In this document: positions 1 through 12,195 of the stretch, piece after piece
Layout of the letters: every line of letters begins with the position of its first letter
Numbering within the stretch: the first letter of the stretch is position 1
Assembly: GCF_003096195.1 (NCBI RefSeq)
Contig: NZ_CP023004.1
Location: 37,299-101,298 of the forward strand
Direction of reading: 5' to 3'
DNA: 64,000 nucleotides
Source of the DNA: Ereboglobus luteus
GTDB lineage: Bacteria > Verrucomicrobiota > Verrucomicrobiia > Opitutales > Opitutaceae
Made by a program: the position numbers and the translations under genes
The notes under the pieces: generated by a model
What the model was told of the DNA's origin: nothing
Seen by the model: the letters and a program-made list of their open reading frames with translations, nothing else
The model's database searches: none

Positions 1-2150
1 TCACCGCCTTCGCCGGCCAAGTTTACAGCATGTCGCGCGAAGACCTCATCCGCGCCGCGCGTCGCCACAAGATTCCCACAAACATCCCCTACGCGCAACT
101 CACCGAAAAACAACGCGAGTTTGTCATGCTCGGCGAACCCGAATATCGGAAACGCAAAACCCGCGGCGAGCAAATCGACTACGAAACCGACGACCTCTGG
201 TATGGATTGAAGGGCTTTTTCGAATGGCTCGAAAACAACACCTACAAAATGCACGTGCGCGTCTTCCTCTCGCGCTTTCGCGCCTACAATCCCTGCCCCG
301 CCTGCCACGGCCAGCGATTGCAACCCGACGCGCTCTGCTGGAAATGGCAAAAACGCACCATCCCCGAACTCTACACGCTCCCCGTCAGCGAGCTTCTCCC
401 GCTCGTTGAAAAGTCCACGATCTCCGACTCCGCCACATCCCTCGAAACGCACAGCGCCAAACTCGCGCGCGACAGCATCCTCACGCGCCTGCGCTACCTC
501 ATCCACGTCGGCCTCGGATACCTCACGCTCGACCGCCCCTCAAAAACGCTCTCCGGCGGCGAAGTCGAGCGCGTCAACCTCACCTCGTGCCTGGGCACCT
601 CGCTCGTCGACACCCTCTTCGTCCTCGACGAACCCAGTGTCGGCCTGCACCCGCGCGACATCGACCGACTCATCGCGATCATCCGCTCGCTCACCGACGC
701 CGGCAACACCGTCGTCGTTGTCGAGCACGACGAAACCATGATTCGCGCCGCCGACCACATCATCGAAGTCGGCCCCGAACCCGGCGCGCAAGGCGGCCAC
801 ATTGTATTCAGCGGACCACTACAAAAACTGCTCGCCGACAAAACAAGCATCACCGGCCGCTACCTCAGCGGACGCGAAACGATCCCCGCGCCACAAACCA
901 GAAGACCGGTGGAAAGCGACCAGAAGGTCAGAGGCCAGAGTGCCAGAGACCAGAATACTAGAGGCCAGAAATCCAGAAAAGCCGCGCCCAAATCTTCAGC
1001 ATCCGCATCATCCTCTGGCACTCTGGCTTCTGGCCTTCTGGCCGCTGGTATTCCGGCCTCCGCCTCCCTTCGCATCGAAGGCGCGTCCAAGCACAACATC
1101 CGCAACCTCTCCCTCTCCGTCCCACTCAACCGGCTCGTCTGCCTCAGCGGCGTTTCCGGCTCCGGCAAATCGACGCTCCTCGACAACATCATCTATCAAG
1201 GAATCCTCGTCTCGCGCCACCTGCTCGCCGAGGACCCCGCCGAAATCGCGCGCATCACCGGCGTCGATGCGTTTGGCGAAATCATCCTCGTCGACCAATC
1301 CCCGCTCAGCCGCACCCCGCGCTCCAACCCCGCGCTCTACAGCGAGGCATGGGAGCACATCCGCGACCTCTACGCATCCACCCCCGCCGCGCAAACGGCG
1401 GGCTTCACCGCGTCGAGCTTCTCGTTCAACAGCGGCGACGGACGCTGCGACCACTGCAACGGTCTCGGCTCCGAGCGCGTCGAAATGCAATTCCTCTCCG
1501 ACGTTTACGTCCCCTGCCCCATTTGCGAAGGCCGCCGTTTCAAACCCGAAGTCCTCGCAATCACATGGCGCGACCGCAGCATCCACGACCTCCTCAACAC
1601 AAGCATCGACGACGCGATCGCCCTCTTCGTTGACCACCCGCAAATCACCACCCGCCTCGCCCCCCTCGCCCAAGTCGGCCTCGGCTACCTCACCCTCGGC
1701 CAGCCGCTCAACACACTCAGCGGAGGCGAATCACAACGCCTGAAACTCGTCCGCCACCTGACGGCGCCAAACGCCGCAAATGTGGATTTCGGAATGCTGA
1801 ATGCGGAATTAAAAACCACCCAAGCCAACAAACCGCCGCTTGCGTCCGGCCGTTCCGCACTCCGCACTCCGCAATCCGCATTCAAACCCGCGCTGCTCCT
1901 GCTGGACGAACCCACCACCGGCCTCCACCGCCACGACGTCAAACGCCTGCTCGCCGTCCTGCACGCCCTCGTTGACCGAGGCCACAGCATCATCGTGATC
2001 GAGCACAACATCGATGTCCTCAAATCCGCCGACTGGATCATCGAAATCGGCCCCGAGGCCGGAGCCGACGGCGGCCGCATCGTCGCCGAAGGCACGCCCG
2101 AGCACCTCGCGCAAAGCAAAACCGAAACCGCGCCCTACCTGCTCGCTGCG
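1..2150 (+). CDS. uvrA: Excinuclease ABC subunit A (UvrA), 5'-truncated at the window edge: C-terminal ~700 aa (insertion domain, Zn finger, ABC signature I/Walker B, complete second ATPase module). Carries two in-frame palindromic-element insertions.
   Basis: Frame open from nt 3 (start of UvrA #1 lies upstream of the window). Motifs [95 protein letters not shown], all colinear with E. coli UvrA residues ~330-940. C-terminus at ..[11 protein letters not shown] (~2150). No stop codon; the frame continues into a linker. Confidence 0.85.
895..1052. repeat. Palindromic element with tandem-heptad arms ((G)GCCAGA(G) x~8 on the left, CTCTGGC-type on the right), inserted in-frame in uvrA (encodes ..[43 protein letters not shown]..).
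   Basis: Left CCAGAGTGCCAGAG is the exact reverse complement of right CTCTGGCACTCTGG; the insert falls between conserved UvrA blocks (E. coli KRKIEVPKK | LKLTGARGNNL). Confidence 0.6.
1778..1896. repeat. Palindromic element (GGAATGC heptad arms; core CCGCCGCTTGCGTCCGG) inserted in-frame in uvrA, just upstream of the second Walker B.
   Basis: Arms AATGTGGATTTCGGAATGCTGAATGCGGAATTAAAAACC / GTTCCGCACTCCGCACTCCGCAATCCGCATTCAAACCC; same family as 39207-39333 (shared CCGCCGCyTGCGTCCG core). Confidence 0.6.
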
Positions 2151-2151
2151 C

Positions 2152-2278
2152 TCGCAAATTCCAAATTCCAAAATCCCAAATTCCAAAAAAATCTCAAATC
2201 ACCAAAATCCAAATCTCAAAAAAACCAAACATCACTTCCCGCCGGGGATTCGCGTTCATTCGCGTCCATTCGCGGTTC
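2152..2278. repeat. Composite low-complexity linker between UvrA and the UvrA-like module, built from two arm types (CCAAATT/CCAAAAT heptads, then TTCGCGT/TTCATTCGCG repeats), translated in-frame.
   Basis: The same two arm types recur together at 49291-49482 and singly at 8099-8134. Confidence 0.45.
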
Positions 2279-2280
2279 AA

Positions 2281-4123
2281 CCCCCGCCTCGCTCAACATA
2301 ATCGGCGCGCGCGAAAACAACCTCAAAAACCTCTCCCTCGACATCCCGCACCACGGCCTCAACGTCGTCACCGGCGTCTCCGGCTCGGGCAAGTCCACGC
2401 TCGCGTTCGACATCGTTTTCGCCGAGGGCCAGCGCCGCTTCATGGAATCCATGTCGCCCTACGCGCGCCAGTTCGTCGAGCAACTCCCGCGCCCCGACAT
2501 CGACCTGCTCACCGGCATCCCGCCCACCGTCGCGATCGAGCAGCGCATCACGCGCGGCTCCCGCAAGTCCACCGTCGCCACCATCACCGAAGTCGCGCAA
2601 TACCTCCGCCTGCTCTACGCCCGCCTCGGCGTGCAGCACCACCCCGACACCGGCCGCCCCATTGTTCCGCTCACGCTCACGCAACTCCGCGCCCACCTCG
2701 CCAAAATCCTCGCCACCGACCCGCGCGCGAAGAAGGCAAAAAACTCTACCTCTGCGCCCCGCTCATCCGCGGACGCAAAGGCCACCACCAACCCATCGCC
2801 ACCTGGATCGAGAAACAAGGCTACACCCACATGCGCGCCGACGGAGACCTCTTCCCCGTCGAAAAATTCGAAAAACTCGACCGCTACAAAGAGCACAACA
2901 TCGAGGTGGTCGTGGCCGATTTGAAATCGGCCACGACCACCTCGAAGAGTGAAAAGCGAAGGGTGAAAAATGAAACACAAACCACTCAACCCACTCAACG
3001 TCCGCATCACTCGCCTGCGTCCGATTTTCACCCTTCACCCTTCACCCTTCACTCTTCCCTGGACGAGGCCCTCCGCCTCGGCCAGGGCTCCTGTTTCCTC
3101 CTCACAGGCGACAACAAAATCATCACCTGGCTCTCGACCACGCGCACCGATTCCGCCACGGGCGAGACATTCCCCGAACTCGATCCCAAGGACTTCTCGA
3201 TCAATTCCCCCCGCGGCTGGTGTCCCGCCTGTCGCGGACACGGGCGCATCTACCCTTGGATGCTCGCGCTCGACAAACAACAAAACGACACGCAGGAAAA
3301 CCGCGACATCGCGCTCCAACTCCGCGCCTACGGCATCTCCGACGCGGATGACATAAGCGACCACGGCCAGCCCTGCCCCGGATGCCACGGTGAACGCCTA
3401 AACCGCGTCGCGCGAGCAGTGCGCCTGCACTTTAGCGCCCCCGCCCCGATCGAAAAGAGTGAAGAGGGAAAGATGAAGAGTGAAAAGCAAGGCGCCAAAC
3501 GCCAGGCAACCAAACTCAAAGCCACTTCCGCTCCCTCTTTCACCCTTCACTCTTCACCCTTCAGCCTTTCCCTCCCCTCGCTCCTGCGCCTCACGCCGGG
3601 CGCGCTCCTCGCGCAACTTCGCCAGCTTGATCAAACCGACACCCGCACCCGCGCCATCACGCAGGACATCCTTCCGCAAATCGAGGAGCGCCTCCGATTC
3701 CTCGACCACGTCGGCCTCGGCTACCTCACGCTCGACCGCCCCACCGAAACGCTCAGCGGAGGCGAGTCGCAACGCATCCGCCTCGCCGCGCAACTCGGCA
3801 GCAACCTCAGCGGCGTGCTCTACGTGCTCGACGAACCTAGCATAGGATTGCACGCCCGCGACAACGACCGCCTGATCGAAACGCTCGAAACCCTCCGCGC
3901 CAAAGGCAACACGCTGCTCGTGGTCGAGCACGATGACGAACTCATGCGCCACGCCGACCGCATCATTGACCTTGGTCCCGCGGCGGGCATCCACGGCGGC
4001 GAGCTCCTTGCCAGCGGCACGCCGGAGGAAATCCGCCAAACCCCCTCCTCCATCACCGGTCTCTTCCTCAAAAAAGGCATCAAGCACCCCCTCCGCGGCG
4101 CCTACCGCCCGCTCCCGGCATGA
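2281..4123 (+). CDS. UvrA-like N-terminal ATPase module (Walker A, Zn fingers, signature I, Walker B) fused in-frame to the upstream uvrA through a low-complexity linker. Reading frame is broken by a -1 indel in an A6 run (2738-2743) and resumes in the +2 frame to the stop at 4123. Contains two in-frame palindromic-element insertions.
   Basis: [48 protein letters not shown] aligns to the E. coli UvrA N-terminus; no ATG/GTG/TTG start between 2150 and 2290. [24 protein letters not shown] then continues as [16 protein letters not shown] only in the other frame (needs A7, observed A6). Downstream [48 protein letters not shown]; ends at the equivalent of E. coli residue ~600. Confidence 0.6.
2905..2940. 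repeat. Perfect 14-bp-stem palindrome GTGGTCGTGGCCGAT-TTGAAA-TCGGCCACGACCAC inside the UvrA-like module, directly 5' of element 2944-3057.
   Basis: The left arm is native coding sequence (EVVVADL); the right arm is its exact inverted copy. Confidence 0.5.
2944..3057. repeat. Palindromic element, GAAGAGT/GAAGGGT-arm subfamily (core AAATGAAACACAAACCACTCAACCC..CGCCTGCGTCCGA), inserted in-frame in the UvrA-like module.
   Basis: Arms GAAGAGTGAAAAGCGAAGGGTGAAAAA / TTTTCACCCTTCACCCTTCACCCTTCACTCTTC; insert of ~44 aa between EVVVADL and [10 protein letters not shown]. Confidence 0.7.
3452..3566. repeat. Palindromic element, same subfamily as 2944-3057, second in-frame insertion in the UvrA-like module.
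   Basis: Arms GAAAAGAGTGAAGAGGGAAAGATGAAGAGTGAAAAGC / CTCTTTCACCCTTCACTCTTCACCCTTCAG; ~37 aa insert between VRLHF and [10 protein letters not shown]. Confidence 0.7.
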
Positions 4124-4303
4124 TCGACGTGTTCTAAAAAACTCAAAAACACACAACTCCGTTTCAGGCGGACGGTTGGCGGACTGTCACTGTCGCGCGT
4201 CCGCCACCCAGCATTGGTTTACGCAATCCGATCGTGGTAATCCCCTGCCCCGTCAAATCATGTAAAAAATCTCCGTCACTTTTTTATCGGACTTGCGTCT
4301 TTT

Positions 4304-4338
4304 GCAATGCGACCGGCATTTTCAGCCGGTCGCATTGT
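4304..4338. promoter_or_regulatory. Perfect 12-bp inverted repeat CAATGCGACCGG-N11-CCGGTCGCATTG ~70 nt upstream of macA; candidate operator or terminator.
   Basis: Sequence symmetry only. Confidence 0.25.
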
Positions 4339-4407
4339 TTAACGACAGCCCGCATCACCACTTTCCCTCACCTAAAAAACACGCACGCACCACGCGCTTT
4401 TTCAAAC

Positions 4408-5835
4408 ATGGCAAAATCCAGCAAGCCCTTCGGTAAAATCATCGTCCTTCTAATCCTCGCCGCAGGCGCCGCCTATGGCGTCTATTACTGGAAAAAAGCC
4501 GACGCCAAACCGCCCGAAATCTCGACCACCGCCGTCACCCGGGGCAGCATCATCCAAAGCATCACCGCCACCGGCGTGCTGCAGGCGCCCACCAGCGTCG
4601 ACGTCTCCTCGCAGATTTCCGGCAAGGTCATCGCGCGCAATGTCGATTACAACGACCACGTGAAGGAAGGCGACGTCCTCTGCCTCATCGACCCCGCCAC
4701 CTACAAATCCAAGCTCCTTCAATCCGAGGCCCAACTCGCCAACACCAAGGCCAGCCACACCCTCACGCGGCTCAACACCGAACGCACCCGCGAGCTCTTC
4801 CAGCAAAACCTCGTCTCGCAAGCCGACCTCGACCAGGCCAACGCCCAGCTCGCGCAGGCCGACGCCCAGCTCAAAATCCAGGAGGCAAATGTCGAAACCG
4901 CCCGCCTCGACCTCGAACGCTGCACAATCACCTCGCCCATCACCGGCATCGTCCTCGACCGCCAGACCGACGTGGGCAAAACCGTCGCCGCCAGCCTCAA
5001 CGCCCCCACCCTTTTCACCCTCATCAACGACCTCACGAAATTGGAAATCAGCGCCGACGTTTCCGAGGCCGACATCGGCGGCATCGCCGACGACCAGGAA
5101 GTGCTCTTCACCGTCGACGCCTATCCCGGCCGGCAGTTTCGCGGCAAGGTTTCCCAAATCCGCAACCTCCCGAAAACCTCCCAGTCCGTCGTCGTCTATT
5201 CGACAATCATCGATGTGAACAACAGCGACCTCCGCCTCAAGCCCGGCATGACGGCAAACGTCAACATCATCACCGCCCGCCGTGACAACGTGCTCGTAAT
5301 CGCAAACTCCGCGCTCCGCGCCCGCATCCCCGAAAAACTCGTCCCCGCAGGCGCCGCCACGACGGGACAATCCGCCGGCAAAAAGAAATCCGATCAGTCA
5401 GGCGACGCCTCAAAACGTAGCAAGCGCGGCGGCAGCAACCGCGAGCAAATGCGCGCGCTCTTTCAGGACGCCGGCATCACCATGGGCCAGCCCGCCACCA
5501 CCGAGGCCATTGAAAAACTCAAGGCCCTCGCCGCCGAGCGCAACATAACGCTCAGCGATCGCATGCTCTCCAACCTGGAGCGCCGCAGCGGCTCCGGCGG
5601 AAGCCCGACCGTCACCCAGCGCACTGTTTACCGCATCGCCACGCCATTGCCCGACCTCAAACTCGAGGCCGTCAACGCCCGCTTCGGCATTAGCGACGGC
5701 TCCAGCACCGAAATCATCGACGGCCTCGCCGAGGGCGAGGAAATCATCACCAGCGTTTACATCCCCGGCACCACCAGCACAACCGCATCCTCCTCCAACT
5801 CCACGCCCTTCGGCGGAGGCCCGAGGTTCCGGTAA
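4408..5835 (+). CDS. macA: Efflux periplasmic adaptor subunit, HlyD/MacA family, with a C-terminal extension.
   Basis: N-terminal TM anchor MAKSSKPFGKIIVLLILAAG, coiled-coil (QAQL..QANAQLAQADAQL), lipoyl/beta-barrel motifs; immediately upstream of a MacB-type ATPase and permease. Confidence 0.75.
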   Translation: MAKSSKPFGKIIVLLILAAGAAYGVYYWKKADAKPPEISTTAVTRGSIIQSITATGVLQAPTSVDVSSQISGKVIARNVDYNDHVKEGDVLCLIDPATYKSKLLQSEAQLANTKASHTLTRLNTERTRELFQQNLVSQADLDQANAQLAQADAQLKIQEANVETARLDLERCTITSPITGIVLDRQTDVGKTVAASLNAPTLFTLINDLTKLEISADVSEADIGGIADDQEVLFTVDAYPGRQFRGKVSQIRNLPKTSQSVVVYSTIIDVNNSDLRLKPGMTANVNIITARRDNVLVIANSALRARIPEKLVPAGAATTGQSAGKKKSDQSGDASKRSKRGGSNREQMRALFQDAGITMGQPATTEAIEKLKALAAERNITLSDRMLSNLERRSGSGGSPTVTQRTVYRIATPLPDLKLEAVNARFGISDGSSTEIIDGLAEGEEIITSVYIPGTTSTTASSSNSTPFGGGPRFR

Positions 5836-5852
5836 CCGCCGCCATCGCGGCG

Positions 5853-5968
5853 GAAGTTGGAAGAGTGAAGGGTGAAAACATGAAAGACAAACCATCCCAA
5901 CCATCAACCGCCACACCACGCCAAAGCCCGTTTTTCACTCTTCACCCTTCACGCTTCACTCTTCTTCC
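5853..5968. repeat. Palindromic element, same subfamily (core AACATGAAAGACAAACCATCCCAACCATCAACC), filling the macA-ATPase intergenic space; the right arm ends 3 nt before the ATPase ATG.
   Basis: Arms GGAAGTTGGAAGAGTGAAGGGTGAAAACA / TTTTTCACTCTTCACCCTTCACGCTTCACTCTTCTTCC; the core is homologous to the 2944-3057 core. Confidence 0.7.
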
Positions 5969-5971
5969 TCC

Positions 5972-6739
5972 ATGCAACCCGTTGTAAAACTCATCGACAT
6001 CCGCAAGACCTACACCACCGGCGAAATCGCGGTCCACGCCGTGCGCGGGGTCACGCTCGACATTTACCCGGGGGAATTCGTCGCGCTCATGGGCGCGTCC
6101 GGCTCCGGCAAGTCGACCCTCATGAACACGCTCGGCTGCCTCGACCGCCCCACCTCGGGCGAGTATTACCTCGACGGCGTCAATGTCGCCAACCTTGACC
6201 GCGACGACCGGGCCGACATCCGCAATCACAAACTCGGTTTCGTATTCCAAGGCTTCAACCTCCTCGCCCGCACCAGCGCCGTCGAAAACGTCGAACTGCC
6301 CATGCTCTACCAGCGCAACCGCACCTCGTCGAAGGAGATGCGCCAGCGCGCCATGGAGGCGCTCGAAATCGTCGGCCTCGCCCAGCGCGCCGACCATCAT
6401 CCCAGCCAGCTCTCCGGCGGCCAGCAGCAGCGCGTCGCCATCGCGCGCGCCCTCGTCAACCGCCCCCAAGTCATCCTCGCCGACGAACCCACCGGCAACC
6501 TCGACACCAAAACCTCCGTCGAAGTCATGGGCGTTTTTCAAAAACTCAACGATCAGGGCATCACGATCCTCATGGTCACGCACGAACTCGACATCGCGCG
6601 TTACTGCAAACGCAACCTCATCCTCCGCGACGGCAAACTCGTCAGCGACGTCCAAGTCGAGACCCGCATGAATTCCGAAGCCGAGCTCCGCAAACTCGCC
6701 GAAGCCGAGGCACAGGCGAAACTGACGGGAGATGAATGA
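5972..6739 (+). CDS. MacB/LolD-type ABC transporter ATP-binding protein.
   Basis: Walker [10 protein letters not shown], signature [15 protein letters not shown], Walker [13 protein letters not shown]-loop. Confidence 0.85.
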
Positions 6740-6796
6740 ACACCCGCCCGACCAGTCCGATCCGACAAATAAGGCCCATCCAAAATTAGACCCGTC

Positions 6797-8005
6797 ATGA
6801 GAATTTTCAGCACCATCGTCATCGCCCTCCGCGCGCTTCGGCGCAACCTCATGCGTTCCATGCTCACCGCGCTCGGCATGATCATCGGCGTCGGCGCCGT
6901 CATCACCGTCGTCGCCATGGGCAGCGGCACCAAGGCGCAAGTCGAGGCGCAAATCGCCGGCCTCGGTGACAACCTCATCACGGTCATCCCCGGCGTTCTC
7001 ACCACCGGCGGCGTGCGCGGCGGATGGAACACCGCGAGCTCCCTCACCATCGAGGACACCATCGCCATCAAGCAGGAAATCGCCGGCGTCACCGGCACCA
7101 GCCCCGAAACCCGCGACCGCGTGCAAGTCATCGCCGGCGGCCTCAACTGGAACACCTCCGCGCAAGGCGTCTCCGCCGACTATGCCGCCATTCGCTCCTG
7201 GTCCGTCGCGGAAGGCGATTTTTTCAGCGAGCAGGATTTGCGCACCAACGCCAAGGTCTGCGTCATTGGCAAGACCGTCGCCGACCAGCTTTACCCCGGG
7301 CTCGATCCCGTCGGTCAAAACATCCGCGCACGCAACATCCCGCTGCGCATCGTCGGCGTCATGGCAAGCAAGGGCTTCAACGCCTACGGCCAGGATCAGG
7401 ACGACTTCATCATGGTCCCCTACACCACCGCGATGAAACGCATCATCCGCCGCGACCGCATAAACCAAATCATGATTCAGGCCGCCAGCGCCGACATCCT
7501 CGACCGCGTGCAAGCCGAGGTCGGCGACCTCCTCCAACAACGCCGCGGCGGGCGCGACCCCGATTACACCGTTCGCAACCAGGAGGAAATTGCCAAGGCC
7601 CGCAACGCCACCAACGAATCCCTCTCGTGGCTGCTCACCGGCATCGCGCTCGTCTCGCTCCTCGTCGGCGGCATCGGCATCATGAACATCATGCTCGTCT
7701 CCGTGACCGAGCGCACCCGCGAAATCGGCATCCGCCTCGCCATCGGCGCGCATGGCAAGGACGTGCTCCTGCAATTCCTCACCGAGGCGATCGTGCTGAG
7801 CGTGCTCGGCGGCGGCATCGGCATCGCCTGCGGCATCGGCGCATCGCAATTCCTCGCACACTACAAGGGCTGGCTCATGGTGATCCCGACCGAATGGGTG
7901 GCGTTCTCCTTCCTCATCAGCGCGGGCGTCGGCATTGCATTCGGATTTTTCCCCGCCATGAAAGCCGCCCAGCTCGACCCCATCGACGCGCTTCGTTACG
8001 AGTGA
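6797..8005 (+). CDS. ABC transporter permease, FtsX/MacB type (N-terminal TM, periplasmic domain, 3 C-terminal TMs).
   Basis: MacB_PCD-like periplasmic region, FtsX C-terminal motif (ERTREIGIRLAIGA), operon context with adaptor and ATPase. Confidence 0.8.
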   Translation: MRIFSTIVIALRALRRNLMRSMLTALGMIIGVGAVITVVAMGSGTKAQVEAQIAGLGDNLITVIPGVLTTGGVRGGWNTASSLTIEDTIAIKQEIAGVTGTSPETRDRVQVIAGGLNWNTSAQGVSADYAAIRSWSVAEGDFFSEQDLRTNAKVCVIGKTVADQLYPGLDPVGQNIRARNIPLRIVGVMASKGFNAYGQDQDDFIMVPYTTAMKRIIRRDRINQIMIQAASADILDRVQAEVGDLLQQRRGGRDPDYTVRNQEEIAKARNATNESLSWLLTGIALVSLLVGGIGIMNIMLVSVTERTREIGIRLAIGAHGKDVLLQFLTEAIVLSVLGGGIGIACGIGASQFLAHYKGWLMVIPTEWVAFSFLISAGVGIAFGFFPAMKAAQLDPIDALRYE

Positions 8006-8007
8006 CC

Positions 8008-8134
8008 TGATTGTGGATTTTGGATTTTAAAAACCCGCGCGAGCTGGTTTGATCCGAGCTTCGTCATGCTTTTTTCATCGCATCGGCGCGGCAGCGCCCC
8101 AATCCAAAATCGAGAACCCAAAATCCCAAATTCA
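8008..8134. repeat. Palindromic element (GGATTTT/CCAAAAT heptad arms) occupying the whole permease-oxidoreductase intergenic region; the right arm ends at the ATG.
   Basis: CTGATTGTGGATTTTGGATTTTAAAAACCC ... CCAATCCAAAATCGAGAACCCAAAATCCCAAATTCA|ATG; the right arm is ~85% identical to the arm preceding the pnp ATG (49291-49328, minus strand). Confidence 0.65.
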
Positions 8135-9451
8135 ATGCACCGTCGCCGCTTCATCAAAACCCTCGCAGCCACCGGCGCCGCCGCGGCGGCGATCCCGCAA
8201 ATCCTGCGCGCGCAACCCGCCGCCCGCGCCGCCGCGAACTCGCGTCTAGCCATCGGCGTCATCGGCACCGGAGGCCAAGGGCTCAACATCATGGGCCAGG
8301 CCCTCGCCAGCCCGCTCGCGCAAGTGGTCGCCGTGTGCGACGTCGACAGCACACACGCCGAAAACGGACGCGCCCGCGTCGAAAAAGCCTATTCCGAAAA
8401 TTCACCCACCGGCGCCTGGCGCGGCTGCGCCGTTTACCGCGACTACCGCGAACTCCTCGCGCGCCCCGACATCGACGCCGTGCTCATCGGCAGCCCCGAC
8501 CACTGGCACGCCCTCCACACCATCCACGCCGCCCGCGCCGGAAAACACATCTTCTGCGAAAAGCCCGCCGCCACCACGCTCGACGAATCCCGAGCCATGA
8601 TCAACGCCGTCGCCCGCGCCGGAGTCGCCTGCCAGATCGGCTCCATGCAACGCTCCTGGGCCGAGTTCCAGCGCGCCATCGCCCTCGCGCGCGGCGGTTA
8701 TCTTGGCAAAATCACCTCAGTCAAAGTCGGCCTCCCCGCCGGGGCCACGCTCCCCAAGAACCCCGACGCCCCGCGCCCGCAACCCGTCCCGCCCGAGCTC
8801 GACTACGAACTCTGGCTCGGCCCCGCGCCCTACCGCCCCTATTTCGAGCAAGGCACGCATTATTTCTGGCGGCACAACTTCGCATTCTCCGGCGGACGCC
8901 TCACCGACTGGATCGGCCACCACCACGACATCGCCATGCTCGCCACCGGCGTCGAAAACCAGCTCCCCGTCGCCATCCGCAACGCCCGCGCCACCTTCAT
9001 CGAAGGCCGCGCGCTCTTCAACACCGCCTGGACCTACAACTTCGACGCCCACTACGCCAACGGCACCGTCATCAACCTCTGTGACAAAAACCGCCTCGGC
9101 GTCACGATTGAGGGCACCGAAGGCACGATTCACGTCACACGCGGACGCATCACGCACAGCACGTCCCTCCTCGAACGCGTCATCATTCCCCCGTGGAAAA
9201 ATCCCCTCGCCCGCGGCGTGCGCGGCCACATGGACAACTTCATCGACTGCGCGCTCCACGGCGGCGAACCCCGATGCCCCGTCATCAGCTCGCACGCGGC
9301 GGTCGGCGCCGGCATTCTCGCCAACGCCGCCTTCCGCTCCGGCCGGGCCAGCCTCGACATCGACCTAAAAACCGAGCGCGCCATCAACGCCCCCGACGCC
9401 AACGCCTTCCTCAAAAAAGTTTACCGCGCCCCGTGGGCCTTCCCCGCCTAA
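8135..9451 (+). CDS. Gfo/Idh/MocA family oxidoreductase with Tat signal peptide.
   Basis: MHRRRFIKTLAATGAAAAA twin-arginine signal; Rossmann GVIGTGGQG; EKP motif in IFCEKPAA. Confidence 0.8.
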   Translation: MHRRRFIKTLAATGAAAAAIPQILRAQPAARAAANSRLAIGVIGTGGQGLNIMGQALASPLAQVVAVCDVDSTHAENGRARVEKAYSENSPTGAWRGCAVYRDYRELLARPDIDAVLIGSPDHWHALHTIHAARAGKHIFCEKPAATTLDESRAMINAVARAGVACQIGSMQRSWAEFQRAIALARGGYLGKITSVKVGLPAGATLPKNPDAPRPQPVPPELDYELWLGPAPYRPYFEQGTHYFWRHNFAFSGGRLTDWIGHHHDIAMLATGVENQLPVAIRNARATFIEGRALFNTAWTYNFDAHYANGTVINLCDKNRLGVTIEGTEGTIHVTRGRITHSTSLLERVIIPPWKNPLARGVRGHMDNFIDCALHGGEPRCPVISSHAAVGAGILANAAFRSGRASLDIDLKTERAINAPDANAFLKKVYRAPWAFPA

Positions 9452-9460
9452 AAAATCCTC

Positions 9461-9590
9461 GGCTCATCAGTCCTACCTGTCCCATCGGTCATATCCCGTC
9501 CCATTAGTCCCATTTCCTAAAAATGAAACACCGCCTACACCGCGCCCTCCTACTTTCGCTCTTTACCCTTCACACTTCACTCTTTCTCCC
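9461..9590. repeat. Partial/composite element: GTCCCAT-repeat tract, core-start motif AAAAATGAAACAC (containing the ATG of the ThuA-HEAT gene) and one CACCCTTCAC-type arm that encodes the signal peptide.
   Basis: The AAATGAAACAC motif is shared with the cores at 2967-2977 and 49421-49431; the arm CTTTACCCTTCACACTTCACTCTTTCTCC matches the right arms of 2944-3057 and 5853-5968. Confidence 0.4.
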
Positions 9591-12195
9591 GGCGAAGCCG
9601 GGGGAACAATTTCCGCCACTCACCCCGCAGGAAACATCCGCCATCTTCGCCGCCGCGCCCGAGGACGCCCGCGCCAAACCGCAACGCCCGCGCAAGCTCC
9701 TCGTCTTCTACCGCACCGAGGGTTTTGTCCACAAATCGATCCCCAACGCCAACCACGCGCTCAAGCTCATGGGCGAGCTGACCGGCGCCTACACCGTCAC
9801 CCTCAGCGACGACATGGCGCAATTCGAGCCCGCCGCGCTCGCCGCCTACGACGCCGTCGTCTTCAACAACACCAGCCGGCTCAAGTTCGAAAACCCCGTC
9901 CACCGCCGGGCGCTTCTCGACTTCGTGCGCAACGGCAAGGGCATGATCGGCATCCACGCCGGCTCCGACAACTTCCCCACGTGGACGGAAGGACAGGCGC
10001 TCATGGGCGGCGTTTTCCACAGTCACCCCTGGGTTGCGAGGGACACCGTCGCCGTGAAAAACGACGACCCCGGACACATCCTCAACACCGCCTTTGAAAA
10101 ACGCGGCTTCTGGATCACCGAGGAAATCTACCAGCACGTCGGCCCCTACAGCCGCGAAAAACAGCGCGTCCTCCTCAGCCTCGACATGAGCCGCGAGGAA
10201 AACAAACGCCCCGCCAACAAAATCGTCCGCGACGACAACGATTTCGGAATCAGTTGGCTCAAAACCGAGGGCAAAGGCCGCGTCTTCTACACCTCGCTCG
10301 GCCACAACAAAAATATCTTCGAGGTTCCGCAAATCCTCCAACACCTCCTCGACGGCATCCAATACGCCCTCGGCGACCTCGAAGCCGACGCCGTCCCCAG
10401 CGCGAAACTCAAAACCCAACCCAAGCCCGCCCTCGCGCCGGACATCAAAATCCCGCTCCAAACCCTGACAGTGCTCCCTTCGCTCAAATCTCTCGCCGCC
10501 TACGAAGTCGGCGACCCGCTCGGCCCCCAGCTCACCTACGAAAAATTTATTCGCACTCAAAACGCCGAACAACGCGCCGCCATTGAAACCGAACTCACCG
10601 AGCTCATTGCCGCTCCCCAAACAACCACCGACGCCAAGCGCGTTTTCCTAAACTGGCTCGGCTGGATCGGCACCGAAAAATCCATCCCCACGCTCACCGC
10701 CGTCGCGAAAAACCCCGACCTCGCCCACGCCGCCATCAGCGCACTCGCCACGATCAACGCGCCCAATGCAGATGACACCCTTCTCGTTATTGCGCGCGAC
10801 GGATTCATATCCGAACCCCTGCCGGCTTCTACGCGCATCGAGGCGCTCAATGCGATAGGCCAGCGACGCGATGAAAAACAAAAAGGCCTTTTCACTCAAT
10901 CGCTCGGAGCATTGGCGAAGGACAAGGATCCCGCCGTTGCTGAGGCGGCGCGCGAGGTTCTCGCCCGCATCGCACCTTCCGCCACACTCGTCGGTCAGGG
11001 CGAGCTGCTTCCAATGGACGAGAACAACGCCCTCCTTTATTCCGCCGACTCCTTTGTTCCAAAAGATGTCGCCCGTTTTCTAAAACACGCGGCCGACAAT
11101 CCGCGCATTAGCGCCGCGGTTGCCTGTCGCATGGTCACATCAGGCGACGTCAAAGTGTTGGAAGCCCTCGAACGCCGCCTGGACGACATTCCGACCGGCA
11201 TCCAAGTCCGCATGATGAACGCGCTCGCCGCCAACCCCGTGCCGATTGCCGCCTTTCCGCTCATCAACCGACTGCTCGCATCCAAAAACACCGAAGTGCG
11301 CATCGCCGCAATCGCCGCTGCCGGATCATGCGCCTACATTTCGAGTATCGAAAAACTCGTCGCCCTTCTTTCATCCGAAGACAAAGACATCGCTGCCGCG
11401 GCCTTCACCGCCCTCACACAAATTCCCGACGAAAACGGCCATGTAAACCTCACAATTTACGAGGAATGGAAAGGCATTGCGGAAACAAATCCTTTATCGA
11501 AAAAACGGCTCTCGAAACTTCTCCTCATTCTCGCCCAACGACAGGAATATGGCATGTTCAGGTTTGCCCTCGCCGACACCGCATCCGACGACAACGACCT
11601 TCGTGCCGCCGCCTTCGAAGCCGTCGCACTTCTCGTGCGCGAGGGCGATTTTCCGCAAATCCTCGAACTCGCAGCCAACATCAAGCGCCCCGCCGACCGA
11701 CGCGAGTGGACGAAGGCGCTCTACACCAGCGCCGCCATTCATCCCGTGTCCGCCGAAGCGGTCTCGCTCATCGAAAAACAACTCAACGCCGCCAAGCCCG
11801 CCGATCGCCCCTCGCTCATTGCCGCGCTCACCATGATCGACGCGCCCGAGGCCAAGTCCGTGCTCCACGCCATGCTCACCTCGCCCGACATCGACGCGCG
11901 CAAGGAAACCATTCGCGCCCTTAGCAGCGCGCGCGGCGAAACCGCCTACGAACTCCTCCTCGAGCGCATCACCGCCGCCCCCAGCGAATCCGAGCGCCTC
12001 CTCGCCCAGCGCGGCGCAATCGACACCGTCGATCACCTCGCAATCCCCGCCAACGACAAGGTCAAGGCCTACCGCAAACTTTGGAAAACCGCCCAAACGC
12101 AGGAAGCCAGGGACGCCATCATCGCCGCCGTCAAAAATCTAGGAAACAGCAGCGCCAAAAGATTCCTGAAGGAAATTTCCCAAGCCGAAAAATAA
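9523..12195 (+). CDS. Secreted ThuA-domain (class I glutamine amidotransferase-like) protein fused to C-terminal HEAT/armadillo repeats.
   Basis: ThuA block KLLVFYRTEGFVHKS..MIGIHAGSDNF..GHNKNIF; repetitive alpha-helical C-terminal half. N-terminal signal peptide MKHRLHRALLLSLFTLHTSLFLPA is encoded by palindromic-element sequence (see findings). Confidence 0.7.
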   Translation: MKHRLHRALLLSLFTLHTSLFLPAKPGEQFPPLTPQETSAIFAAAPEDARAKPQRPRKLLVFYRTEGFVHKSIPNANHALKLMGELTGAYTVTLSDDMAQFEPAALAAYDAVVFNNTSRLKFENPVHRRALLDFVRNGKGMIGIHAGSDNFPTWTEGQALMGGVFHSHPWVARDTVAVKNDDPGHILNTAFEKRGFWITEEIYQHVGPYSREKQRVLLSLDMSREENKRPANKIVRDDNDFGISWLKTEGKGRVFYTSLGHNKNIFEVPQILQHLLDGIQYALGDLEADAVPSAKLKTQPKPALAPDIKIPLQTLTVLPSLKSLAAYEVGDPLGPQLTYEKFIRTQNAEQRAAIETELTELIAAPQTTTDAKRVFLNWLGWIGTEKSIPTLTAVAKNPDLAHAAISALATINAPNADDTLLVIARDGFISEPLPASTRIEALNAIGQRRDEKQKGLFTQSLGALAKDKDPAVAEAAREVLARIAPSATLVGQGELLPMDENNALLYSADSFVPKDVARFLKHAADNPRISAAVACRMVTSGDVKVLEALERRLDDIPTGIQVRMMNALAANPVPIAAFPLINRLLASKNTEVRIAAIAAAGSCAYISSIEKLVALLSSEDKDIAAAAFTALTQIPDENGHVNLTIYEEWKGIAETNPLSKKRLSKLLLILAQRQEYGMFRFALADTASDDNDLRAAAFEAVALLVREGDFPQILELAANIKRPADRREWTKALYTSAAIHPVSAEAVSLIEKQLNAAKPADRPSLIAALTMIDAPEAKSVLHAMLTSPDIDARKETIRALSSARGETAYELLLERITAAPSESERLLAQRGAIDTVDHLAIPANDKVKAYRKLWKTAQTQEARDAIIAAVKNLGNSSAKRFLKEISQAEK

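Follow-up and report, generated by a model that had tools for sequence, protein, structure and literature searches.

The gene considered here is uvrA of an Ereboglobus strain (Opitutaceae, Verrucomicrobiota), which lies on the + strand at the 5′ end of a 64-kb stretch of DNA, hereafter the window, and ends at position 4123. It encodes a canonical UvrA (half A) fused to a third ATP-binding cassette (ABC) module (half B, or module 3), equivalent to nucleotide-binding domain I (NBD-I′) of a second UvrA. Opitutaceae normally encode a tandem, single-chain UvrA–UvrA of ~2000 amino acids with four ABC ATPase modules. In the ancestor of the clade to which the window belongs, the coding region of the fourth module has been cleanly deleted at an inter-domain linker, and the resulting protein of ~1720 amino acids has been kept by purifying selection. 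The best explanation, which we hold to be probable, combines this ancestral loss with a mechanism that we infer, in which the three-module protein would function as a single-chain, asymmetric pseudo-dimer loading one UvrB.

The first ~350 codons of uvrA lie upstream of the window; with the N-terminus inferred from Ereboglobus strain PH5-5, the predicted full length is ~1723 amino acids. On the + strand, frame 3 has no stop codon between 3 and 2924, nor has frame 2 between ~2010 and its stop codon at 4121-4123, so that after a single frame correction the reading frame continues to this stop. An earlier note, made from the sequence, had remarked that no stop codon follows the canonical C-terminus of UvrA and that a low-complexity linker leads directly into a second UvrA N-terminus. 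Both statements hold: the C-terminal residues APYLLAAL (2130-2153) are followed by 135 stop-free nucleotides (2154-2288), and the second N-terminus begins at 2289, with its Walker A motif at 2373-2405. Relatives have a linker of other sequence at the same place. As the same note proposed, the second module has no alternative start, there being no in-frame ATG, GTG or TTG within 2050-2442; no promoter-like site for separate expression of module 3 was found inside the gene. After frame correction the 611-residue module 3 matches residues 28-615 of chain 9gxk_A among the solved UvrA structures (E = 2e-152), a match spanning NBD-I with its UvrB-binding domain up to the inter-NBD linker, which agrees with the proposal that the module ends near residue 600 of a canonical UvrA. 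Since it also matches the UvrA model TIGR00630 (E = 7e-146), the observation is confirmed far beyond chance. The domain map of the gene is as follows.

3-905, + strand: half A, C-terminal part of NBD-I (tail of the insertion domain), recognised from its translation, its motifs and its match to TIGR00630/NF001503
294-311, + strand: Zn2 motif CPACHG of half A NBD-I
549-572, + strand: signature LSGGEVER of half A NBD-I
615-638 and 714-731, + strand: Walker B and H-loop, respectively, of half A NBD-I
1068-2153, + strand: half A, NBD-II
1149-1181 and 1446-1532, + strand: Walker A and C-terminal zinc module (Zn3), respectively, of half A NBD-II
1716-1745, 1893-1916 and 1995-2009, + strand: signature, Walker B and H-loop, respectively, of half A NBD-II
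2130-2153, + strand: canonical C-terminus of half A
2154-2288, + strand: inter-half linker of 45 amino acids, low in complexity, with heptamer and decamer repeats (element E3)
2289-4120, + strand: half B, module 3 (NBD-I′), read in frame 3 through 2737 and in frame 2 thereafter (from 2738)
2373-2405 and 2532-2546, + strand: Walker A and Q-loop, respectively, of module 3
2433-2474, + strand: dimer-interface and DNA-probing stretch of module 3
2724-2945, + strand: canonical UvrB-binding domain of half B (PF17760), with recognisable stretches at 2750-2788 and 2894-2923, matching the isolated UvrA interaction domain 4dfc_B
2735-2746, + strand: frameshift site GGCAAAAAACTC, with one base missing by comparison with relatives, where a -1 shift (frame 3 to frame 2) is needed
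3221-3238 and 3374-3391, + strand: Zn2 cysteine pairs of module 3, ~45 amino acids apart
3752-3781, 3818-3841 and 3917-3934, + strand: signature, Walker B and H-loop, respectively, of module 3
4052-4123, + strand: remnant of the NBD-I/NBD-II linker, then the stop codon at 4121-4123; four-module relatives have their fourth NBD here

The origin of this architecture emerges from a homologue search which took in 5.8 billion proteins. Nearly all of the top matches are uniform Opitutaceae proteins of 1900-2100 amino acids, annotated as excinuclease ABC subunit A, with 62-65% identity and 100% query coverage; examples with the four-module length are found in Opitutus terrae (1995 amino acids), Nibricoccus aquaticus (1998) and strain TAV1 (2136). 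Four NBDs are present in the O. terrae and TAV1 sequences, making each a complete tandem UvrA–UvrA. Three are present in the proteins of an Ereboglobus metagenome-assembled genome (MAG; P0002, 1763 amino acids, 75% identity) and of Termitidicoccus mucosus (P0015, 1727 amino acids, 69% identity), and a termite MAG (L006) has the same three-NBD architecture. The long three-module homologues which the earlier note suggested looking for in related genomes thus exist, and relatives carry one fused gene and not a pair of distinct genes in which the second UvrA is complete, the case that would have spoken against its description. The closest match of all, from Ereboglobus sp. PH5-5 (96% identity), is cut by a contig end.

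At the level of genomic loci, the fourth NBD directly follows module 3 in ~70 of 80 related loci. In the window and in loci L001/L004, L002 and L006 a stop codon occurs instead 2-10 codons after module 3, without a fourth module, and the window gene accordingly does not continue from NBD-I′ to an NBD-II′ in the same open reading frame (ORF), the order that marks the second half of a tandem UvrA. P0002, P0015 and the window protein all end a few residues past the motif GLFL.KGI.HP.RG.YR.LP, inside the linker between modules I and II of the second half; in the window the stop lies eight codons past the conserved HPLRG of this linker. The three-module members have the C-terminal motif YR[PED]LP in common. 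A module 3 tree (86 sequences, 524 columns, 100 bootstraps) recovers the window, L001, L002, L006 and L007, the last cut at a contig end, as monophyletic in 100 of the 100 bootstraps; they form a clade of Ereboglobus (the window and the MAG), Termitidicoccus mucosus and termite-gut MAGs. The common end point together with this monophyly points to one deletion event, in an ancestor shared by Ereboglobus, Termitidicoccus and related lineages from termite guts. Sequence comparison thus indicates that module 3 is the remnant of a complete second UvrA, and that a fourth module was lost, not an extra one gained. The earlier note had offered a novel UvrA with an extra module I as one of its two readings; the architecture with three NBDs is conserved in relatives, whilst the gain of an extra module by duplication does not stand.

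The fourth module appears to have left no trace. Searches for a homologue of NBD-II′ had no hit in the 60 kb that follow uvrA or in the rest of the window, in ~6 kb to each side in L001 and L002, or over 2 kb downstream in L006, and those for a relic gave only noise downstream of uvrA, in the window and in the downstream flanks of the relatives. The genes downstream differ among the three-module genera.

Some sequences stand apart from this pattern. In L035 (Geminisphaera colitermitum TAV2, 5491-6116) uvrA stops 15 codons after module 3 and the contig ends 577 nucleotides past the stop codon. This short gene could be either an independent truncation or split, or an effect of draft assembly, and it was left out of the three-module clade because it is sister to the four-module TAV1 (100% bootstrap). 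The partial PH5-5 protein is uninformative on the 3′ half because of poly-G/poly-P junk at its contig end. The top-scoring homologue, P0001 (2403 amino acids), contains an exact repeat of ~400 amino acids (NBD-II of half A), joined at the common Walker A motif, and is probably the product of misassembly or of recombination between paralogous modules. Counting of modules by regular expressions over 150 representatives was too noisy to provide a census of three-module forms.

Module 3 has remained under constraint since the loss. Its ratio of non-synonymous to synonymous substitution rates (dN/dS) is 0.20-0.42, against 0.24-0.34 for half A. The ratio of divergence in module 3 to that in half A is 0.81-1.0 in three-module forms; for pairs of four-module proteins the median is 0.78 (5-95% range 0.63-0.92). 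When the 326 module 3 positions which are at least 95% conserved in four-module proteins are considered, 321 are kept in the three-module proteins; the other five differ in most of these, all of them by conservative changes (S/T, W/Y, L/H). The Walker A, Q-loop, signature, Walker B and H-loop motifs are intact. An AlphaFold model of an orthologous module 3 built from a 90-sequence alignment has a predicted local distance difference test score (pLDDT) of 88.3 and a predicted template modelling score of 0.85, with only the repeat-element inserts disordered, and its best Foldseek matches are UvrA structures; without the alignment the pLDDT is 34. Conservation and model alike indicate that the third module is not decaying in this lineage, which tells against the second reading in the earlier note, a decaying partial duplication: the lineage keeps module 3 under purifying selection. 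Because it is conserved throughout this small clade of insect-gut bacteria, the three-module form is to be regarded as a working variant and not as a stage of decay.

What such a protein might do is suggested by the accessory domains of its two halves. PF17760, the UvrB-binding domain, scores 66 bits in half B of the window and 76-82 bits in that of the orthologues P0019 and P0002. Half A, scanned alone, gives ~30 bits, above the Pfam threshold, with the last third of the profile aligned, and the conserved RGRKGEH strand of the domain is replaced. PF17755, the insertion or DNA-binding domain, is found in half A only (35-41 bits); half B has no match even at E ≤ 10, its Zn2 cysteine pairs lying ~45 amino acids apart. 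Neither half has a typical N-terminal zinc module, with its CxxC pairs to both sides of the domain that binds UvrB: module 3 reads HHPDTG, without cysteine, where Clostridium thermocellum UvrA has CYLC, and half A has a single cysteine at this position. The N-terminal zinc module is dispensable in E. coli. Half A has the two ABC modules expected of a UvrA protomer, half B only NBD-I. The Walker A motif of half A NBD-I lies upstream of the window and is seen in PH5-5; half A of the orthologue aligns to residues 10-623 of Bst UvrA (2r6f), and half A by itself passes the NCBI thresholds for UvrA, residues 14-998 of P0019 covering positions 5-942 of a model of 943. The two halves are thus specialised in complementary ways, in three- and four-module forms alike. 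The residues which form the dimer interface and probe the DNA (R54, Y/F55, Y62, Q65, F66 and P83, as listed in PMC12796330) are conserved in both halves. At this interface the halves also carry differences fixed throughout the lineage: residue 55 is Tyr in half A and Phe in half B, and residue 80 is Asn and Gly, respectively. Such differences would be expected were each half to associate with the other half instead of with a copy of itself.

The current picture of UvrA is that of a symmetric dimer which has four ATP sites and brings in two molecules of UvrB, one for each strand of the DNA (PMC12796330). In the canonical UvrA2 the protomers are joined through their ATP-binding-I domains, and cryo-electron microscopy has shown DNA to be held mainly by the signature-II, ATP-binding-II and insertion domains (PMC12796330). 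Set against this arrangement, the fused protein would fold as an intramolecular pseudo-dimer of half A with half B, joined at an ATP-binding-I:ATP-binding-I interface. One complete UvrB-loading site would be kept, made up of half B's UvrB-binding domain, the signature II domain of half A and this interface. The surface lost with the fourth module would be signature II of half B, the partner of the already divergent UvrB-binding domain of half A. Damage sensing and DNA binding would fall to half A, whilst half B would serve as an adaptor that binds ATP and recruits UvrB, and presumably Mfd. A more far-reaching proposal, which we put forward tentatively and would not favour at even odds, is that selection maintains here a UvrA with an odd number of ATPase modules, in which an NBD-I without a partner serves as a dimer-interface and UvrB-recruiting arm, and that nucleotide excision repair (NER) proceeds in these bacteria with one complete UvrB-loading site per sensor.

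Several points weigh against the single-chain pseudo-dimer. ABC ATPases act as pairs of modules and an unpaired one is unusual; the near-perfect conservation of Walker A, signature and D-loop in module 3 suggests that it still has some partner, be it another chain or an NBD-II′ encoded by a gene of its own. Half A exceeds Pfam's UvrB-binding domain threshold and so may bind UvrB as well. Half B, which lacks both NBD-II′ and an insertion domain, would add little DNA contact. Finally, the frame is broken in the window itself, and the deletion, if real, leaves this strain with no intact third module.

One arrangement that would accommodate the first of these points is that in which two chains form a canonical A:A dimer and their two NBD-I′ modules pair head-to-tail, to give six modules and two canonical UvrB-binding domains. 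Such a dimer would explain the conserved ABC motifs of NBD-I′; it draws on a half A that is a complete UvrA passing the NCBI thresholds unaided, and it would keep two UvrB, as the model of strand sampling by two UvrB requires. The fixed differences at residues 55 and 80, however, fit heterotypic A:B pairing at least as well, and the divergence of half A's UvrB-binding domain would then have no evident reason. We regard this dimer of chains as unlikely, though it is the alternative to which we give most weight.

Somewhat less probable still is a split protein, in which another part of the genome would encode NBD-II′ and this module would join module 3 in trans, so that four ATPase modules are present in all. 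Module 3 keeps essentially every residue conserved in its four-module relatives, including the motifs of the ABC sandwich, and two loci offer precedents. In L046, from a freshwater Opitutaceae MAG, a vapB/vapC-like toxin-antitoxin pair (9381-10219, with a PIN-type ORF of 141 amino acids) interrupts the gene precisely in the linker that joins module 3 to NBD-II′, leaving a three-module ORF of 1625 amino acids and a separate NBD-II′ downstream. In L084 (958-7919), from an unrelated metagenomic lineage, a gene for a class-I-like UvrA plus NBD-I′ (P0186, 1705 amino acids), with UvrB-binding and insertion domains in both halves, ends in the linker and is followed by an overlapping ORF in which NBD-II′ is accompanied by a long region of low complexity and by an additional domain at the C-terminus; there are Ns nearby in the scaffold, and this split is possibly a sequencing frameshift. 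Against a split in the window clade stand the failure to find NBD-II′ or a relic of it in the regions named above, the differing downstream genes of each genus, and the need of a relocated module for a new promoter and start codon.

The broken frame of the window raises a separate question, that of the state of the gene in this strain. The earlier note had recorded one frameshift; it is present in the sequence and comparison with relatives places it at 2738, a position in the run CGCGCGCG at 2720-2730 being ruled out by the same comparison. Relatives read GCGAAAAAACTC or GCAAAAAACCTC at this site, and the window therefore lacks one base: the codons are GCG AAA AAA CTC in PH5-5, GCA AAA AAC CTC in the Ereboglobus MAG and GCA AAA AAC TC in the window. 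The frameshift is absent from every relative examined. Over 2.9 kb the window and PH5-5 share 96.75% DNA identity with three indels only, two being 15-nucleotide length changes inside the repeat element E1 and the third the single-nucleotide deletion at 2738. No other frameshifted gene was found among the ~45 genes of the window, so the lesion is isolated; the suspicious ORF pairs pgsA/pgpA, gatC/gatA and gatB with an AMP-binding enzyme gene proved to be separate genes and not frameshifts. The single-nucleotide deletion is specific to this strain and goes back either to a rare error of assembly next to the A6 run or to a mutation of recent date.

Should the deletion be real, the gene would be a pseudogene in this strain, module 3 being inactivated and half A produced with a short out-of-frame tail. 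We think this improbable, to about the same degree as the split protein. The deletion is there in the sequence, and as the only frameshift in ~45 genes it argues against a generally error-prone assembly. Moreover, no recorded protein is identical to the downstream ORF of 430 amino acids and no full-length product with 100% identity occurs among the matches, which fits annotation as a pseudogene. Yet frame 2 past the shift is stop-free for 1.4 kb and as conserved as the rest (dN/dS 0.20 against L001), so that any inactivation must be very recent; the closest strain, PH5-5, is intact at the site, and miscalling of a single base beside an A6 run is common as an assembly error. Very improbable indeed is a rescue of the full-length protein at GCA AAA AAC by -1 ribosomal frameshifting, whether programmed or fortuitous, or by slippage during transcription: the zero-frame heptamer A AAA AAC (A6C), the motif used by IS1, fits the slippery pattern X XXY YYZ, the shift needed is exactly -1 and the product ...AKN-LYLCAP... 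would equal that of the orthologue P0002, but the downstream hairpin (z = -1.1) folds no better than 28 of 200 shuffled sequences, no relative needs a shift at the site and there is no evident reason for such control in a housekeeping repair gene.

Returning to the three-module UvrA itself, its place among known systems can be defined. Full-length P0002 passes the UvrA thresholds of TIGR00630 (1382 bits, cut-off 729.8) and NF001503 (1379 bits, cut-off 1147); the window fragments reach only 644 and 488 bits because they are partial. The nearest system is the four-module UvrA of other Opitutaceae, which is orthologous over three modules and has the same asymmetry between halves, the same linker positions and the same loops that take up low-complexity inserts, and from which the window clade differs in lacking the fourth module (~370 amino acids). 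With canonical class I UvrA (E. coli; Geobacillus stearothermophilus, 2R6F and 3UWX; Thermotoga maritima, 3PIH; C. thermocellum, 9GXK) the window protein shares a half A that is a full UvrA and a module 3 that aligns to NBD-I, including the UvrB-binding domain, the ATPase motifs and the dimer-interface residues. By contrast, it is one chain of three modules and not a homodimer of two-module chains; its module 3 has no N-terminal zinc module, its half B no insertion domain, and the UvrB-binding domain of its half A is divergent. The double-length UvrA of chlamydiae (NF001885/PRK00635, model length 1809) is also a tandem UvrA. Against its cut-off of 3054 bits, however, P0002 scores 818 and P0019 1049, with the best stretches in the first half of the model (593-826 and 6-921, respectively), and the Opitutaceae proteins therefore do not belong to the same equivalog. 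Class II proteins (Deinococcus radiodurans UvrA2, 2VF7; Ecm16, 7SH1; DrrC) are likewise relatives of UvrA with a non-standard domain complement. They lack the UvrB-binding domain and act outside NER, whereas the window protein retains a canonical one, its most conserved accessory domain.

Long proteins of this kind are widespread: of the 150 best representatives of clusters formed at 50% identity, almost all have 1500-2300 amino acids, and Chlamydiales (with a protein of 1885 amino acids), Spirochaetota and a Pseudomonadales MAG are among their sources. Literature searches for tandem or duplicated UvrA, class III UvrA and UvrA in Verrucomicrobia returned nothing relevant within the library covered, and no experimental study of the Opitutaceae tandem UvrA was found, these proteins being annotated only as excinuclease ABC subunit UvrA. 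Goosen and Moolenaar reportedly defined further classes of UvrA in 2008. Tandem UvrA is thus a known but unstudied kind of protein, of which the three-module form is a new variant.

The gene also carries an unusual load of repeats. The earlier note had counted five element insertions, and five inverted heptamer-repeat arrays are indeed present, all in frame and lying in surface loops. Each element consists of two inverted heptamer arrays (CCAGAGG/CCTCTGG, GAAGAGTGAA/TTCACCC and others) around a spacer of 50-65 nucleotides. The 64 kb contain nine heptamer arrays, of which five sit in the 4 kb of uvrA, and relatives have different elements in the same uvrA loops. The elements, and a further array outside the gene, are the following.

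906-1075, + strand: E1, CCAGAGG-type arrays (915-1069; arms 915-948 and 1013-1046) in the NBD-I/NBD-II linker of half A
~1760-1885, + strand: E2 (array 1779-1880), between signature and Walker B of half A NBD-II
2155-2280, + strand: E3, inside the inter-half linker
2925-3068, + strand: E4, just after the UvrB-binding domain (array 2940-3068; arms 2944-2975 and 3026-3057, GAAGAGTGAA and TTCACCC)
3440-3570, + strand: E5, of the same family as E4 (array 3455-3562), between Zn2 and signature domain I′
5934-5961: further heptamer array, outside uvrA

The disordered inserts of the AlphaFold model are those equivalent to E4 and E5. A perfect 22-nucleotide palindrome (2901-2945, TCGAGGTGGTCGTGGCCGATTT and AAATCGGCCACGACCACCTCGA) adjoins E4; in its left arm lies the coding sequence for the conserved IEVVVADL with which the UvrB-binding domain ends, and the PH5-5 assembly breaks into poly-G/poly-C junk exactly here. 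Directly 3′ of uvrA, at 4234-9451, the window contains an ORF for a MacA/HlyD-type adaptor, one for a MacB-like ABC ATPase and two further ORFs, a neighbourhood not common to L001 or L002.

For annotation, the existence of this clade means that length alone is no ground for labelling three-module genes as "pseudogene" or "partial". For the family, it means that in Ereboglobus and Termitidicoccus a whole ATPase module of the second half is dispensable while the remainder is strongly constrained. The clade therefore offers a ready-made construct with which to ask whether one UvrB-loading site is enough, whether an unpaired NBD can bind or hydrolyse ATP, and how much symmetry is needed for damage recognition. 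If these bacteria do rely on a single-chain sensor with an odd number of modules, they would represent a natural experiment on how many UvrB molecules are needed and on the share that each ATPase site of UvrA contributes.

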